From IMG/VR virus record IMGVR_UViG_2695420503_000022: a DNA stretch of 5,722 nt. One strand, written 5' to 3'. A model generated the notes under the pieces. That model was not told where the DNA came from. It did no database searches and saw only the letters and a list, made by a program, of their open reading frames with translations. The stretch is from a virus (Duplodnaviria > Heunggongvirae > Uroviricota > Caudoviricetes). Position numbers and translations under genes: made by a program. Of this stretch, positions 1 to 5,722 are shown piece after piece (positions within the stretch are counted from its first letter, which is position 1; every line of letters begins with the position of its first letter).

Positions 1-66
1 GCAACCCTGACAAAAGTTGGGCGGGATATTCTTGCGAAATCGACCGTTGCCGCCGTTATCGAATAA
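1..66 (+). pseudogene. Orphan 3' end of a second side-tail-fibre constant-region copy, ending at TAA 64..66 (left boundary off-window)
   Basis: Frame 1 reads [21 protein letters not shown]. Nt 1..65 are the exact reverse complement of 3972..4036 inside the minus-strand stf gene (...[26 protein letters not shown]...). Where the active gene continues TAC CTC (Y L), this copy has TAA followed by an A-run. Confidence 0.6.
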
Positions 67-90
67 AAAAAAAAAACGGAAACGGTAAAC
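56..90. other. Degenerate crossover-site relic of recombinant (inverted-state) type: Sc-side half-site, A-tract in place of the core, then the Sv'-side flank
   Basis: 56..65 TTATCGAATA equals the Sc-proximal half of the 3956..3981 site (reverse complement). 78..90 GGAAACGGTAAAC is identical to 897..909 (end of the 875..900 site plus first Sv' codons). The two matches are colinear with no gap, but the 12 nt between them are A11C instead of CCTCGGTTTACA. Confidence 0.55.
65..76. repeat. A12 homopolymer tract
   Basis: Twelve consecutive A directly visible; it occupies the position of the crossover-site core in the relic. Confidence 0.9.
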
Positions 91-139
91 TTTTGAACCT
101 TATCCCGCGGCGTTACATGGTCAATTTGATTCCATTTCC

Positions 140-439
140 ATGTTTTACCTTCTTCACTGCCTGCCTGGAAATATATCTACAAAAAGCTGTGTAATACGCA
201 ATGCGGCGCAGGCCTTAACTGACGATGGAACTCTATACGGAGCCACAATTCTTGGCGATGGAGTTGTGCACAATAGCTTCGGTCAAAAACTGATGCGCAT
301 TTACAATCAGAAAGGCATCTTTTCAAACACAAAAGATTCCGAAGAAGGCTTAACACATATACTCTCAGAGCATTTCGAGAATGTTAAAACCAAGGTTCAA
401 GGTACTGTAGTAATGTTTTCCGCTTCAGGGAAAAAATAG
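140..439 (+). CDS. Hypothetical 99-aa protein, unassigned; possible cargo/moron gene
   Basis: Only sizeable ORF in the 67..493 gap; stop TAG 437..439. No purine-rich Shine-Dalgarno within 15 nt of the ATG (tttgattccatttccATG). No recognisable family from the translation. Composition looks AT-richer than the tail-fibre genes. Confidence 0.3.
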   Translation: MFYLLHCLPGNISTKSCVIRNAAQALTDDGTLYGATILGDGVVHNSFGQKLMRIYNQKGIFSNTKDSEEGLTHILSEHFENVKTKVQGTVVMFSASGKK

Positions 440-446
440 CATCCAA

Positions 447-479
447 CCGCAGCACGTTCTTGCTTAAGACGTGCTGCGG
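447..479. terminator. Strong stem-loop (11-bp perfect stem ccgcagcacgt / acgtgctgcgg); probable terminator of the ancestral stf-tfa operon (minus strand)
   Basis: Perfect 11-bp inverted repeat with 11-nt loop. It lies 15 nt 3' of the tfa-remnant stop (494..496, minus) and 8 nt 3' of the ORF99 stop (plus). On the minus strand a T6 run follows about 10 nt after the stem; no T-run on the plus strand, so not a canonical intrinsic terminator in either direction. Confidence 0.4.
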
Positions 480-493
480 CATAATCCCAATGA

Positions 494-586
494 TTACTCC
501 CTGACAGGGTTCGTAGGCCACTCAATATCAGGTGCAGTTGATGTATCAACACGGTTCAGCAACACCCGATACTTTTTCCAGGCTTC
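494..586 (-). pseudogene. tfa: C-terminal remnant (~30 codons) of a third tail-fibre assembly (Tfa) gene, fused in frame behind the invertase remnant
   Basis: Minus-strand translation in the pin frame reads [30 protein letters not shown] (stop 494..496). It shares the E-W-x-x-Y ... RVDT ... EWP pattern with the C-termini of both in-window tfa genes ([25 protein letters not shown]; [27 protein letters not shown]) and matches my recollection of the lambda Tfa C-terminus. Confidence 0.7.
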
Positions 587-820
587 CACCACCAGCACGA
601 CAAGATGCCGCATACAGTGAACCAGTCAGTCCAGTTTTCAGACAACCAGTGCGTCACCTTTTTGAAGGCGCTTTAAAGCACGTTTTAATCCAGGTCGGCC
701 TGTCCTTGTTCCGCTTAATTTATCTTCAAATATTTGTTCATATCCTGCACAAACAAGAGCGTTTCGTTGCAGATCTGTATTCTGGTCATTTGTTGATACC
801 CTTACATAGCCAATCAGCAC
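587..820 (-). pseudogene. pin: Serine DNA invertase (Pin/Gin/Hin/Cin family) remnant: N-terminal ~78 codons with two in-frame TGA stops, 3' part deleted
   Basis: Translation [76 protein letters not shown] matches the invertase N-terminus as I recall it (MLIGYVRVSTNDQ...DTLVVWKLDRLGRSMKHLISLVGE), with TGA at 638..640 where Trp is expected and TGA at 626..628 where Arg is expected. Likely start is GTG 818..820 preceded by GGAG (the ORF track extends to another GTG at 844). The catalytic Ser in YVRVSTNDQ is present, but the rest of the catalytic domain and the C-terminal DNA-binding domain are absent. Confidence 0.8.
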
Positions 821-874
821 GCTGAATCTCCCGTCCAAAAGCACAAATCATGCCATACAGGCCAGAAACCGCCA

Positions 875-900
875 TTATCTAAAACCTCGGTTTACAGGAA
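875..900. other. 26-bp invertase crossover site (gix/pix-like), invertase-proximal
   Basis: TTATCTAAAACC TC GGTTTACAGGAA: imperfect dyad around a 2-bp core. It matches the gix/hix-type site as I recall it and matches the reverse complement of 3956..3981 at 22 of 26 positions. It is read in frame into the Sv' cassette. Confidence 0.8.
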
Positions 901-1914
901 ACGGTAAACAAGGCTGGTAACGCCGTTCAGCGTTCCGGCGATAAAATGACCGGAGAACTGAAAATTGGCACGGTGAATGCGCTGCGAATTTTCAATGATG
1001 CCTTCGGTCTTATTTTCCGTCGTTCAGAAGATTTTCTTCATTTCATTCCGACGGCTGAAGGACAAGGCGAAAACGGTGATATAGGCCCATTAAGGCCATT
1101 CGCTATAAATCTGAGAACAGGTGCTATATCTGTCAGCCACGGGGCCAAAATTGATGGTGGGCTGGCGCTTGGTACAGATAACGCACTGGGCGGTAATTCC
1201 ATTACTCTCGGAGATAACGACACTGGTATTAAACAGGGCGGCGACGGTGTCCTTTTATTCTATTCAAATGGACAACTGGCATTTGGGCTTCAACCCGCAT
1301 CTGCTGATTTTTATAAGCGGGTTGCATATATTCATCAGGGAATAATTCCTGATGGAAGTGGCGCATTTGCAGACCAGTTGAATAATGCCACCGCGCCTTT
1401 TGTTCAGACGCAGTTTGCCTGGAATCCCACTCCTGGTGGTCATTACGTGCCGATAGTTAAGGGCTTGTCCATTCGCAATGGACAGGGCTATCCCGGCGCG
1501 GTCAGCTTTGGGTATTTACTGACAGAACAGTATGGATTTCCGGTTCCATGTATTCATATGCGTGGCGATGGCGGTAATGATGCTTTATGGCAGTTTAACC
1601 CGAACGATAAATCCTTTATTTCACCGGGTGCTCTTATTGCGGGTGGCGTCCGTTATAACACCGATGGAAATATATTTGGTGGGTGCTGGGGTTCAAACTT
1701 AAATGATTACCTGAATAGTTCTTTTATCAGAAATGTGCGTCTGGGAGGCAGACGTTCTGACACATTATATCGCGGAGGACTTTGCGAACCAGGTAATGGT
1801 CATGTGACAACAGGATTGCAAATTATTGGTGAGGTTGATGGAGATGACTGGATGGTGTCACGACCACTACAAAAATACATTTCTGGTAACTGGTATAACG
1901 TTGAACAGGCATAG
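889..1914 (+). CDS. Alternative tail-fibre C-terminal receptor-binding cassette (Sv'), promoterless and start-less in this orientation
   Basis: Open frame runs continuously from the crossover core (GGT TTA CAG GAA ACG ...) to TAG 1912..1914; the ATG at 946 is in this frame but probably incidental. Shares ALGGNSI[TV]LGDNDTG[IF]KQ[GN]GDG and a C-terminal QKYI[SN]G[NT]WYNV with the expressed cassette. Inversion would fuse it to the stf constant region. Confidence 0.8.
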   Translation, partial: GLQETVNKAGNAVQRSGDKMTGELKIGTVNALRIFNDAFGLIFRRSEDFLHFIPTAEGQGENGDIGPLRPFAINLRTGAISVSHGAKIDGGLALGTDNALGGNSITLGDNDTGIKQGGDGVLLFYSNGQLAFGLQPASADFYKRVAYIHQGIIPDGSGAFADQLNNATAPFVQTQFAWNPTPGGHYVPIVKGLSIRNGQGYPGAVSFGYLLTEQYGFPVPCIHMRGDGGNDALWQFNPNDKSFISPGALIAGGVRYNTDGNIFGGCWGSNLNDYLNSSFIRNVRLGGRRSDTLYRGGLCEPGNGHVTTGLQIIGEVDGDDWMVSRPLQKYISGNWYNVEQA

Positions 1915-1929
1915 CCATCAGGAGAATAT

Positions 1930-2457
1930 ATGCAACATCTGAAAAATATTACCGCCGGAAACCCCAAAACCATTGAGCAGTATCAGCTTACGAAAAAAGC
2001 TGGCGTTATCTGGCTATATACAGAAGACGGTAAAAACTGGTATGACGAATTAAAAAACTTTCAGGATGATACTTTAAAAATAGCTTATGACCAGAAGGGG
2101 ATTATTCGTTGTATTGAGAAAGACGTATCAACACTTAACCCTGACGGGTTAAGTGTTGTTGAGTTACCGAATATAACAGCCAACCGTCGCGCCGATATCT
2201 CGGGAAACTGGAAGTTTCTGGATGGTAAAGTAGTAAAGCGGGAATATACAAAACAGGAACTGCAACAGCAGGCAGAGTTACAAAAAGCCGCTTTGCTTTC
2301 CGAAGCGGAGTCTGTGATTCAACCGCTGGAACGTGCTGTCAGACTGAATATGGCAACTGATGAGGAACGCACACGACTGGAATCATGGGAACGCTACAGC
2401 GTTATGGTCAGCCGTGTGGATACTGCAAAGCCTGAATGGCCACAGAAACCAGAATAA
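1930..2457 (+). CDS. tfa: Tail-fibre assembly chaperone partnered with Sv' (Tfa/U' family)
   Basis: 175 aa; AGGAG at 1920..1924 five nt before the ATG. N-terminus [38 protein letters not shown] is a close paralogue of the minus-strand tfa and Mu U-like; typical Tfa C-terminal motif. Confidence 0.85.
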
Positions 2458-2466
2458 CAACAAATT

Positions 2467-2486
2467 AAGGCCCGTACGGGCCTTTT
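2467..2486. terminator. Bidirectional intrinsic terminator between the convergent tfa genes
   Basis: aaGGCCCgtacGGGCCtttt: GC stem with a 4-nt loop, T-run on the plus strand and a T-rich tail (aatttgttg) on the minus strand. It sits in the 30-bp gap between stop 2455..2457 and stop 2488..2490. Confidence 0.55.
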
Positions 2487-2487
2487 C

Positions 2488-3021
2488 TTATTCTGGTGGT
2501 TCCGGGAATGTTACAGGAAGAACCGAGGTATCAGTTGTCTCAACCTGTTGCACGTATCGCATCCAGTTCATCAGTTGCTGTCTGTCTGAATCAGTGATAA
2601 TCCCCAAAGTAAGCTGTGTTTGCCAGAACTGCGTTTTTTCTCTGGCCTGCTGTAATAATATTTTTTTCTGGTTTTCCGTCTGTAGGCGCAACTCTTCTTC
2701 GGTATATACACGTTTAATGACTGCGCCATCTTTAAACATCCATTTACCTGAGTCGTCAGCACGCCGGTTGGCGGTAATATCAGGAATCTCAACGACGCTA
2801 TAACCTTCAGGGTTAAGTGTGGAGGCATCTTTGGTTATGGCAACAATAATATTATTTTCATCGTAAACAATCTTTATGGTGTCTGGCTGAAAGTTTTTCA
2901 CTTCCTCATACCAGTTTTTTTCGTCCTCAGAGTAAAGCCAGATAACTCCGTGTTTCTTTGTTAACTCATACTGTTCCAGTGTTTTAGCATTACCCGCTTT
3001 TATGTTCTTTAAGTGCATCAT
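2488..3021 (-). CDS. tfa: Tail-fibre assembly chaperone for the currently expressed fibre (Tfa/U family)
   Basis: 177 aa; its ATG (3019..3021) lies one nt after the stf stop (3023..3025), indicating translational coupling. N-terminus [59 protein letters not shown] resembles Mu U / Tfa proteins as I recall them. Confidence 0.9.
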
Positions 3022-3022
3022 A

Positions 3023-5722
3023 TTAAACGCTCGCTACATTATACCAGGTGCCATTTATATACTTTTGAACGGGTCTGTAATAAACGCCCGCTATATTATC
3101 GGCAGAGTTAGACCCTGTATCCTGAACATTAATACCAGACAATACATGACCTGAAGGGCACCGGAAATACCATGTTTGCCAGTTGTTCACTCCATAATAT
3201 TGCTGTGAACCAAGTCGAACATCTTTCACATAACGGGAATCAAAGTTACCGTAATCCGAGGGGTTAACACGCCCTGTAATATTTATGGTTTTATTACTTT
3301 GAATGCTTCCGGAGACAAAGCGCATAACATGGACGTTATTAGCATAAACATCCAGATTACCATCGCCATTTTGTTTAAAGCCCGTGTCATTATCACCCAA
3401 TACAATCGAATTACCGCCAAGAGCACTGGATGTTCCGATACCCAGTGTACCATTCAGTTGACCACCAGATAACGGCAGTGCACCAACATCTCCTGCTGAA
3501 GGTTTTCTGGTGGTGGTGTAAAATTCGGACCAGTCGGCTTCAAAACCATAACCATCACGGGCTGAACGATAAAAAACACCGCCATTTTTATAATTAATCC
3601 GAAACTGAGCTGCAGGACAACTTCCTTCTCCCATATAAAAATGAATAATTAACGTTGATGCACCACTAATAGTTGCGTTATAGGCTCCGCTACTCCAGTT
3701 CCATCCAACTGCTTTATCATTCGCAACGGTGCTTCCTGTTTTCCCTAAGGCAAACGCACCAACATGACTTGCTTTTAATGTGATATCGGAGGAACCATCA
3801 AAAGCCACATTGCTTATTTTCCTGGCAGTTTTTAATTTTGCAGCTGTAGAAGCATTGCCGGATAGTTCACCAGAAAGGCCACCGCTGAATGTTTGTCGAT
3901 TAGTCCAGGTATTCGCTGTACTGAGTAACGGTATTTTCTCCCCGCTTGTGCCGAGTTCTCGTAAACCGAGGTATTCGATAACGGCGGCAACGGTCGATTT
4001 CGCAAGAATATCCCGCCCAACTTTTGTCAGGGTTGCCAGACTGGCAACATCATTCCCCGTAAAATACGGAAACCTGTCTGCCGCAGTAGCAAGCCCGGCC
4101 AGCGCCGTCAGGGTGGCATCTTTCGGTTGCTTACCCGCAAGCGCGTTAGTCATGGTGGTCGCAAAATTCGGGTCGTTGCCCAACGCCGCAGCCAGCTCGT
4201 TCAGCGTATTCAGTGCGTCAGGCGACGAGTCCACGAGGGCAGCGATCGCAGCCATAACATAAGCCGTGCTTGCGATTTGGGTATTATTCGTTCCCTGTCG
4301 CGCAGTTGGTGTTGTTGGCGTTCCGGTCAGTGCAGGACTATTTAAGGGCGCTTTCTTGTTCGTTTCACCCATTACCGCCTTAACCGCTTTTGGCGTTGCC
4401 GCCAGTGACTCGGAAGTGCTGTTGGTCGCACTGCTGAGCTGTACTATCCCCTTTTTCGTCGTGCTCGCATCCTCCAGCGCCACGGCGGATGCAATATCCT
4501 CTGCCCGTTTTGCTGCTGTCTCGGCGCGCGTTGCCGCGGATTCCGCCGTACTTTTGCTCTGAGCTGCCGCCGTCACACTACCAGCTGCCTCTGATGCTTT
4601 CATTGTTGCTGTCGTGGCACTACCTTTCGCTGCTGACGCTTGTCTGGTCGCCTCATCTTTTGAAGCAGACGCAGATGATGCCGATGACGCCGCTGAACTG
4701 GCTGACGATGCGGCTGCCGCCTTAGAGGAAGCAGCATTGTCTGCTGAAGTCTTTGCATTTGTTTCAGAGGTTTTTGCTGCAGAAGCAGACCTCGCTGCTG
4801 CAGTGGCTTGCTCAGTGGCTTTGCCAGCCTTCGTTGTGGCTGTTGAAGCGGATGATGCGGCGCTTTCTGCCGATTTTCCGGCGGCGGTGGCACTGGCTGA
4901 GGCCTGCCCGGCACTTGTTGACGCGGCACTGGCAGACGACGCAGCCGCTGTTTTTGAGCCTGCCGCAGCCGAGGCGCTCTGTCCCGCTGCCGTTTCAGAA
5001 GACCTGGCGTTTGTCTCAGACGTCTTTGCCGCCTTCGCGGAATTGCCTGCCGCCGTTGCCGAGGAAGCGGCACTACTGGCGCTTGATGATGCGTTCGTTT
5101 CTGATGATTTCGCTGCCTCTTTTGAGGCCGCCGCATCCCGGGCTGAGGTGGCTGCTTCTGACGCCTTCGTGGTCGCGGCGGATGCAGAAGTGGCTGCTGA
5201 TTGTTGTGACGCTGCCGCATTCGTTTCTGACGTTTTCGCCGCAGCGGCACTGGTAGCTGCCGCGCTTTTTGAGGACTCTGCAGCAGCAGCACTTTTCGAT
5301 GCTTCACTGGCCTTTGTTGATGCCGTTCCTGCGCTGGAAGACGCTGACTGAGCCGACGACGCGGCCTGTCCGGCTGACGTGCTGGCGGCACGTGCTGAGG
5401 CTGCAGCATCGGTTGCATGAGTTACCGCCTCGCTGGCTGATGCACTGGCATCGCTGGCTGATTTTTTCGCGGCTGCCGTATTCTGTGCAACCGCGGAGGC
5501 GTTACGTGACACTTCTTCCACCATCTGCTCAAAGCGGCGCAGTGCCTCCGGTCGGACATCATCCTCCGTCATGGCACCGAGAAAATCATTCAGCGTACCT
5601 GGTCTGGAACCTTCATAGACGGTAATGGTCCCGGCATGTGAAGGCGGAAAACCTTCAACCAGCAGGGTGACGCTGTACTGACCATGCTCAACATCCATGC
5701 TGTAACGTCCGGCTTCATCCGG
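3023..5722 (-). CDS. stf: Side tail fibre protein (lambda Stf-like), 5'-partial: constant region (3970..5722) fused through the crossover site to the Sv cassette (3023..3967)
   Basis: The open frame continues past the first in-window Met to the window edge (...[37 protein letters not shown]...). N-terminal domain and the KTSETNA-containing Ala/Ser-rich shaft resemble lambda Stf / E. coli StfR as I recall them. The C-terminal part carries the [13 protein letters not shown] motif and ends ...[14 protein letters not shown]. Confidence 0.9.
3956..3981. other. 26-bp invertase crossover site inside the stf coding sequence (codons I-E-Y-L-G-L-R-E)
   Basis: Plus strand TTCTCGTAAACC GA GGTATTCGATAA; its reverse complement TTATCGAATACC TC GGTTTACGAGAA matches the 875..900 site at 22/26 with an identical TC core and lies in inverted orientation to it. 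Confidence 0.8.
3972..4036. repeat. Right arm of a 65-bp perfect inverted repeat (left arm 1..65)
   Basis: Reverse complement of 3972..4036 is identical to 1..65; identity breaks at position 66 versus 3971. Confidence 0.85.
4530..5500 (-). repeat. Low-complexity Ala/Ser/Thr-rich periodic repeat region encoding the fibre shaft (approximate bounds)
   Basis: The protein shows reiterated A-A-K-T/S-S-E-T-N-A units and A/S/T runs. At DNA level, degenerate ~27-bp repeats of the type gcNgcaaaaacNtcNgaaacaaatgc (minus sense) recur at about 4747, 5030, 5095 and 5225. The GC-rich, stop-poor sequence generates long spurious ORFs in other frames. Confidence 0.7.

Follow-up and report, generated by a model that had tools for sequence, protein, structure and literature searches.

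An invertible tail fiber cassette in a lambdoid prophage of Escherichia coli whose own invertase is a stump and whose inversion probably relies on invertases acting in trans

Can the tail fiber switch of a prophage keep operating once its own recombinase gene has been broken? This question is raised by a 5,722-nucleotide stretch of caudoviral DNA (IMG/VR record IMGVR_UViG_2695420503_000022; hereafter, the window), in which an invertible pair of fiber cassettes adjoins the remnant of a serine invertase gene. A first-pass annotation had left two outcomes for this switch, i.e., inversion by an invertase supplied in trans or a fiber locked in a single state.

With its first 90 bases set aside, the window matches the genome of E. 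coli WS3294A at 100% identity, apart from 2 bases by which WS3294A is shorter across the match; its identity to ST131 genomes such as JJ1886 is 98.8%. The 2-base shortfall is likely due to homopolymer errors of the WS3294A assembly. Two cassette genes (i.e., Sv' and tfa'; see below) are annotated there as frameshifted (WS3294A locus 6796-8365), and the corresponding open reading frames (ORFs) of the window are intact. In WS3294A and the ST131 genomes, the locus forms the right end of a lambdoid prophage at ompW, beside the trp operon; it is prophage Phi4 of the E. coli ST131 strain EC958. The leftmost gene is the 3' part of a class I SAM-dependent methyltransferase gene (ybcY-like; 91-439, plus strand; PGAP on identical DNA and Pfam on the full-length homolog), which is convergent with the invertase remnant. 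Between them lie the last 29 codons and the stop of a lambda-type tfa gene (494-590, minus strand; stop codon at 494-496), identified by a match to phage PhiR26_1 and by Pfam (Caudo_TAP). RefSeq places a 45-aa hypothetical protein (WP_001309429.1) at 384-521 (minus strand), across the 3' end of the methyltransferase gene and the stretch downstream of the tfa fragment; this is probably a spurious gene call. A GC-rich hairpin (gcagcacgt...acgtgctgc; 449-478) past the methyltransferase stop, between the convergent genes, looks like a bidirectional terminator, as does a second one (aaggcccgtacgggcctttt; 2461-2480) between the convergent genes tfa' and tfa. A promoter and terminator scan of 380-960 returned nothing, and the hairpin at 449-478, which lies inside this region, was not flagged.

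The invertible segment measures 3,081 bp between the core dinucleotides of two crossover sites (888-3968) and 3,107 bp from site to site. The site beside the invertase stump (875-900, minus strand) reads TTCCTGTAAACCGAGGTTTTAGATAA, and the site within the fiber gene (3956-3981, plus strand) reads TTCTCGTAAACCGAGGTATTCGATAA. The first-pass annotation had described these sites as well preserved, with intact cores, and direct comparison confirmed that they are identical at 22/26 positions and share the same GA core. A pattern written from both sites found only these two and gave 0 matches in 200 shuffles. Compared with the gix site of phage Mu, the site at 875-900 is identical at 25/26 positions and the site at 3956-3981 at 22/26.

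To the right of the segment lies the constant part (Sc; 3969-5722, minus strand; Pfam phage_tail_N and PGAP) of a lambda-type side tail fiber gene (3023-5722, minus strand), which runs past the right end of the window. In the window orientation, Sc continues into the expressed fiber C-terminus Sv (3023-3967, minus strand), which is paired with a chaperone gene, tfa (2488-3021, minus strand; Pfam Caudo_TAP, E = 6e-32). The silent alternative C-terminus, Sv' (889-1914, plus strand), comes in frame with the constant part once the segment is inverted, and it has its own chaperone gene, tfa' (1930-2457, plus strand; Pfam Caudo_TAP, E = 9e-35). Each cassette thus consists of a fiber C-terminus followed by a Caudo_TAP gene. 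Two inverted 26-bp sites with an identical central dinucleotide are present, as in a Gin-type tail fiber switch, together with mirror-image fiber C-termini and chaperones, each in frame with the constant part in its orientation. The layout resembles the G segment of Mu, in which the constant fiber part is followed by Sv-U and U'-Sv' between inverted 26-bp sites and the invertase gene lies just outside, reading away, with its start 67 bp from the site center. Mu, however, encodes a complete Gin of 193 aa, whereas the window retains 79 codons with two stops, and the element that carries them is not a Mu-like phage but a lambdoid prophage whose Stf constant part is of the lambda type. Within Sc, the region at 4600-5420 (minus strand) is a long Ala/Ser/Thr-rich stretch of degenerate repeats, whose spacings are multiples of 21 nt (i.e., 84, 126, and 252 nt). 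This is where the window departs most from JJ1886 (57 differences in 1,754 nt).

Positions 1-90 (plus strand) are anomalous and do not belong to the usual locus. The end of the constant fiber part (3972-4036) recurs there as an exact reverse complement (bases 1-65), an 11-A run plus CG stands in for the 13 central bases of a crossover site, and bases 79-90 equal 899-910 (the start of Sv'); the sequence then leaps, at base 91, to a point midway through the methyltransferase gene. The left end looks like a damaged copy of the flipped-state fiber junction (i.e., Sc-site-Sv') stuck onto the locus. Its junction was absent from 5,426 complete E. coli genomes, and exact-pattern scans of genome, viral, and metagenome contig collections gave no matches. 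The truncated methyltransferase ORF (99 aa) is too common to be informative about the origin of this end.

The invertase remnant occupies 584-820 on the minus strand (79 codons, with a GTG start at 820), and its translation from this start reads VLIGYVRVSTNDQ...GDALVV*KLD*L. The GTG start is common to the stump, the intact invertase of UTI89/ST131 Phi1, and Mu gin. An invertase N-terminus with the nucleophilic Ser in YVRVSTNDQ had been recognized at first pass, and both profile and structure matches agree. With the stops read through, Pfam Resolvase (PF00239) aligned to residues 3-83 (E = 2.7e-21; profile positions 2-91 of 145), and the Gin structures 4m6f and 3uj3 matched the stump at E = 1e-40 with Ser9 aligned (codon TCA at 794-796, minus strand, placed by translation and by alignment to these structures). 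The stump thus contains the N-terminal catalytic domain with the Ser nucleophile in the YxRVST motif. The first-pass annotation had further let the homology end after about 78 codons, with a boundary at 587, and had called the gene a pseudogene without most of the catalytic domain and all of the DNA-binding domain; we place the end at codon 79 (window 584-590), and the Pfam scan supports the loss of both parts. No helix-turn-helix (HTH) domain (PF02796) was detected in the Pfam scan of the read-through stump, in which Caudo_TAP (PF02413) takes over from residue 79, and the alignments revealed no invertase-like sequence beyond codon 79, i.e., past window 584-590. A continuing, diverged invertase homology to about codon 100 was considered and rejected, because the DNA from 591 downstream matches the 3' end of a phage tfa gene at 99.8% identity; the DTS(T/S) similarity past the junction, which HMMER aligned to Gin, is coincidental.

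The stump also lacks the complete catalytic domain with the DRLGRS arginines, the oligomerization (E) helix, and an uninterrupted ORF of about 185 to 200 codons (intact relatives, 184 to 199 aa), and PGAP labels the gene as incomplete, missing its C-terminus. Two TGA codons that had been noted at 638-640 and 626-628 (minus strand) are indeed seen in the translation, as codons 61 and 65. Since the frame contains two stops and has lost the DRLGRS arginines, the oligomerization helix, and the HTH domain, the stump cannot catalyze recombination. The segment is therefore adjoined by a 79-codon stump and not by a functional cognate invertase.

We surveyed the orientation of the segment in complete E. 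coli genomes by using two 838-nt probes, each of which joined the methyltransferase, tfa fragment, and stump region to 250 nt of one of the two cassettes. The genomes with the same stump flank comprised 144 in the window orientation and 239 in the flipped orientation, although these counts partly reflect shared ancestry and not independent flips. Exchange at the core should yield reciprocal hybrid sites, and exactly these are present in the flipped genomes; the crossover lies inside the identical central stretch in every case. The near-clonal genomes Esc9 and Esc22 have 0 differences over a left flank of 12,288 nt, and their 3,081-nt segments are exact reverse complements of each other (0 differences) with reciprocal hybrid sites. 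JJ1886 and U13A exhibit the same inversion pattern, again with the segment as an exact reverse complement. The fiber ORF is complete in both states (Stf of 941 aa in Esc9 and 968 aa in Esc22), and a flipped construct likewise contains an uninterrupted fiber ORF with Sv' in frame with the constant part. In addition, PacBio sequencing of EC958 recovered both Phi4 alleles from one culture, with the alternative allele assembled as its own contig (Forde et al. 2014, PMC4134206).

These observations bear directly on the possibility that the switch is frozen, i.e., that the fiber, for want of a cognate invertase, is locked in the Sv state (as had been allowed at first pass) while the silent cassette decays. 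The cognate invertase is certainly dead, and PGAP marks some flipped-state fiber genes as "incomplete; missing C-terminus," with about 690 bp left unannotated (locus coordinates 9015-11249 and 15015-17249). This label is an annotation artifact, since the flipped-state ORF is uninterrupted at 968 aa; the lack of a Pfam match in Sv' probably causes the miscall. A locked fiber and a decaying cassette do not agree with the intact flipped ORF, with the uninterrupted ORFs of Sv' and tfa', with the presence of both orientations beside an identical stump (144 and 239 genomes, plus the near-clonal pairs), or with the mixed orientations in a single EC958 culture (PMC4134206). The frozen state is already refuted at the population level, and we consider it highly improbable for the locus. 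The switch is orphaned, yet it is not frozen.

Inversion might instead arise by RecA-dependent homologous recombination between the 32-bp inverted repeats, without a serine invertase in trans. RecA recombination needs roughly 23 to 27 bp of identity. The inverted arms are perfectly identical over 12 bp at most, which is well below this need, and homologous recombination is therefore an unlikely source of the inversions. The location of every crossover within the identical central stretch is compatible with RecA, but either mechanism would give that result. The matches of the sites to Mu gix (25/26 and 22/26, with a matching GA core) point to a serine invertase, as do the switching in EC958, which was common enough to give the alternative Phi4 allele a contig of its own (PMC4134206), and the cross-prophage action of an invertase demonstrated in K-12 (PMC12529663). 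On this evidence, the RecA route is left with a very low probability.

Since the cognate gene is a pseudogene and the sites are intact, inversion must depend on an invertase acting in trans. This is the only route to inversion that the first-pass annotation had admitted. The invertases Gin, Pin, Cin, and Hin are classically known, since the 1980s, to complement one another in trans. Intact paralogs elsewhere in the genome, which had been named at first pass as the enzymes to look for, were found in JJ1886 (a Gin/Pin-family invertase of 199 aa in the P2-like Phi1), in Esc9 (a Gin-like invertase of 190 aa in a Mu-like prophage), and in WS3294A (an invertase of 188 aa in a P2-like prophage); this survey covered selected chromosome regions and no plasmids, and other invertases may exist. 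An intact paralog would also be expected in the window's own strain, judging from WS3294A, which is the closest complete genome. The action of an invertase on the segment of another prophage has an experimental precedent in K-12, where PinQ of prophage Qin inverts the P segment of prophage e14 (Kirigo et al. 2025, PMC12529663). Phi1 cannot be the sole donor of the enzyme, since the Esc9/Esc22 pair lacks Phi1 and still differs by inversion. In Esc9, serS abuts dmsA, which shows the absence of Phi1, and the genome matches the invertase 5' region at one place only. Esc9, which is ST131-like, keeps a Mu-like prophage between aroA and ycaL, and it offers a natural test case for the invertase that flips Phi4. 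As for which enzyme flips the Phi4 segment, we infer a serine invertase of a co-resident prophage (i.e., P2-like Phi1, Mu-like Phi2, or similar).

Taken as a whole, the explanation that we favor (probability, about 0.88) is a Phi4 cassette with a dead invertase stump that is flipped in trans by the invertases of co-resident prophages. The lambdoid Phi4 end carries a Mu G-segment-type invertible tail fiber cassette, and of its own invertase gene a stump of 79 codons remains. Illegitimate recombination would have fused this stump to the final 29 codons of the lambda-type tfa gene that normally lies beside the ybcY-like methyltransferase gene. Because both 26-bp sites and, very probably, the Fis enhancer in the retained 5' 190 bp are intact, serine invertases of co-resident prophages could still invert the 3,081-bp segment, and each inversion would exchange two complete fiber-plus-chaperone pairs.

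The enhancer of this explanation was sought in the stump itself. Fis sites have been reported inside the gin coding region (PMC3378877). The first-pass annotation had held that the gene still has its 5' portion, the expected place of the Fis enhancer in this family, and gene nt 1-192 are indeed retained in the stump with 96% identity to Mu gin. The candidate enhancer (713-775, minus strand), proposed from conservation across invertase genes, contains three candidate 15-bp cores, placed from the consensus and spacing of Fis sites, at gene nt 46-60 (761-775), 71-85 (736-750), and 94-108 (713-727). Across 7 invertase genes, all three cores keep G(-7). At position +7, cores two and three always have C, and the first core has either C or T. 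Every remnant allele agrees with Mu over the whole third core. The outer two cores are 48 bp apart, which is the spacing in Hin. An alignment to Gin/Hin had been proposed for locating the Fis sites; the alignment of the seven genes gave these candidate cores, but a scan with a strict Fis consensus (G..YR..W..YR..C, at least 6/7) found no site pair 48 bp apart. The conservation across the seven invertase genes weakly suggests a candidate Fis pair, and the stump may accordingly be viewed as a putative source of the enhancer in cis. A further and more tentative proposal, to which we give somewhat less than even odds, is that the 5' 190 bp of the stump is kept as the sole cis-acting Fis enhancer of a host-range switch that relies on the invertases of unrelated co-resident prophages, with the Gin of the Mu-like Phi2 serving in ST131 strains where the P2-like Phi1 is missing.

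The retention of the stump could alternatively reflect a function of its product, if an N-terminal peptide of 60 to 64 aa were still made and, for example, modulated the invertases acting in trans. The stump occurs widely and varies little (95 to 100% identity among carriers), and some records annotate it as an ordinary coding sequence. A cis-acting enhancer or recent spread would explain this conservation equally well. Moreover, the fragment lacks both the dimerization helix and the DNA-binding domain, a scan of 380-960 gave no sigma-70-like promoter, and ST131 has gained the extra stop at codon 61 with no visible consequence. A functional peptide thus has a very slim chance of accounting for the stump.

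The history of the two stops can be read in part from their distribution. Both had been derived, at first pass, from the expected codons by single transitions. This stands for codon 61, which is Trp in every intact homolog (TGG to TGA). It is not demonstrable for codon 65, the first and catalytic Arg of the DRLGRS motif, since intact homologs have CGC, CGG, or AGG at this place and codons 65-69 form a cluster of changes. Window 612-628, which corresponds to these five codons, has six to seven nucleotide changes packed together. The scrambled codons (RLGRS to *LVHC) destroy the catalytic motif, and they separate two parts of different affinity: codons 1-64 are Gin-type (184/192 nt identical to Mu gin; 96%), and codons 70-79 are PinE-type (29/30 nt identical to K-12 pinE; 97%). 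The stump is a Gin/PinE mosaic. A reading of 592-629 as filler was also considered and was rejected on the match of codons 70-79 to K-12 pinE (29/30 nt).

The codon 65 TGA is common to the remnant alleles in prophages at three different attachment sites, and the invertase-tfa junction accompanies it in prophages at prfC (strain K71-77) and potB (strain ETEC-2264). Since the same junction and codon 65 TGA occur in the prfC and potB prophages, the truncation is old and shared. The K71-77 and ETEC-2264 alleles retain TGG at codon 61. The codon 65 stop, being present at three attachment sites, is the older of the two, and the codon 61 stop is a recent, lineage-specific G-to-A change. The remnant, including both TGAs, is identical in JJ1886, where the differences in the left flank are confined to positions 560, 579, and 857, and 378 records match window 600-910 at at least 99% identity; from this we conclude that the stops are real. 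A base-by-base check of the junction and both TGAs covered 5 genomes, of which H1/WS3294A and JJ1886 are in the window orientation and U13A and Esc22 are flipped; the fifth is Esc9. The reading of the stops and the truncation as sequencing or assembly errors that hide a full-length invertase, for which the anomalous and apparently chimeric left end (1-90) might speak, has a negligible probability given the recurrence of the junction and the codon 65 TGA at three attachment sites, these 378 records and five checked genomes, and the PGAP annotation of the gene as incomplete.

The fusion itself was placed by a three-way alignment of the remnant, K-12 pinE, and the tfa gene of PhiR26_1, in which the stump passes into the lambda-type tfa 3' end at a TGGA microhomology around 584-590 (minus strand). 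The active phage PhiR26_1, whose full-length tfa product has 194 aa, matches window 91-591 with its tfa 3' end and ybcY at 99.8% identity. The tfa fragment of the window covers Caudo_TAP profile positions 104-130 of 131, and the full-length chaperone domain is absent from it. In active lambdoid phages, PhiR26_1 among them, the same methyltransferase gene follows a complete tfa gene, and the invertible module therefore looks like a graft in an stf-tfa-ybcY end of the lambda type; one boundary of the graft falls within the invertase gene. The active lambdoid phages PhiR26_1 and 2G7b have a full-length tfa gene and no invertible cassette, and the ybcY-tfaX region of the K-12 prophage DLP12 matches window 300-591. 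In contrast to these three, the window has the invertible module and the invertase stump in place of the first 165 codons of tfa.

Parts of this picture were already published for EC958 in 2014, i.e., the truncated invertase, the inversion in culture, and the proposal of an enzyme in trans. Forde et al. (PLoS One 9:e104400; PMC4134206) described the same 26-bp sites in Phi4, a truncated invertase (EC958_1582) without PF02796, and an invertible segment of 3,106 bp (3,107 bp by coordinates), and they concluded that another enzyme acts in trans, possibly the Phi1 invertase. The EC958 locus is the same as that of the window but is in the flipped state, so that it has the reciprocal hybrid sites; apart from the opposite orientation and a few single-nucleotide polymorphisms, the two differ in nothing essential. 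The e14 P segment with PinQ is similar in that the invertase of one cryptic prophage inverts the fiber segment of another, whereas e14 keeps an intact pinE and its sites differ from gix at 8/26 positions. The details added here are the Gin/PinE mosaic origin of the stump, its microhomology junction with tfa, the relative ages of the two stops, the population census of orientations, and flipping in a lineage without Phi1.

For the handling of sequence data, an invertible segment such as this one occurs in either orientation in near-identical assemblies and can yield spurious duplicate contigs, and it leads annotation pipelines to label an intact fiber gene as a pseudogene. For the prophages themselves, the locus indicates that those residing in one cell can share recombination machinery and that the loss of its own enzyme need not end a tail fiber switch, provided that the sites and the cis enhancer are preserved. 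If the stump is indeed kept as the enhancer, a gene fossil would survive as a regulatory element, and co-resident prophages would set the rate and timing of fiber switching in Phi4.
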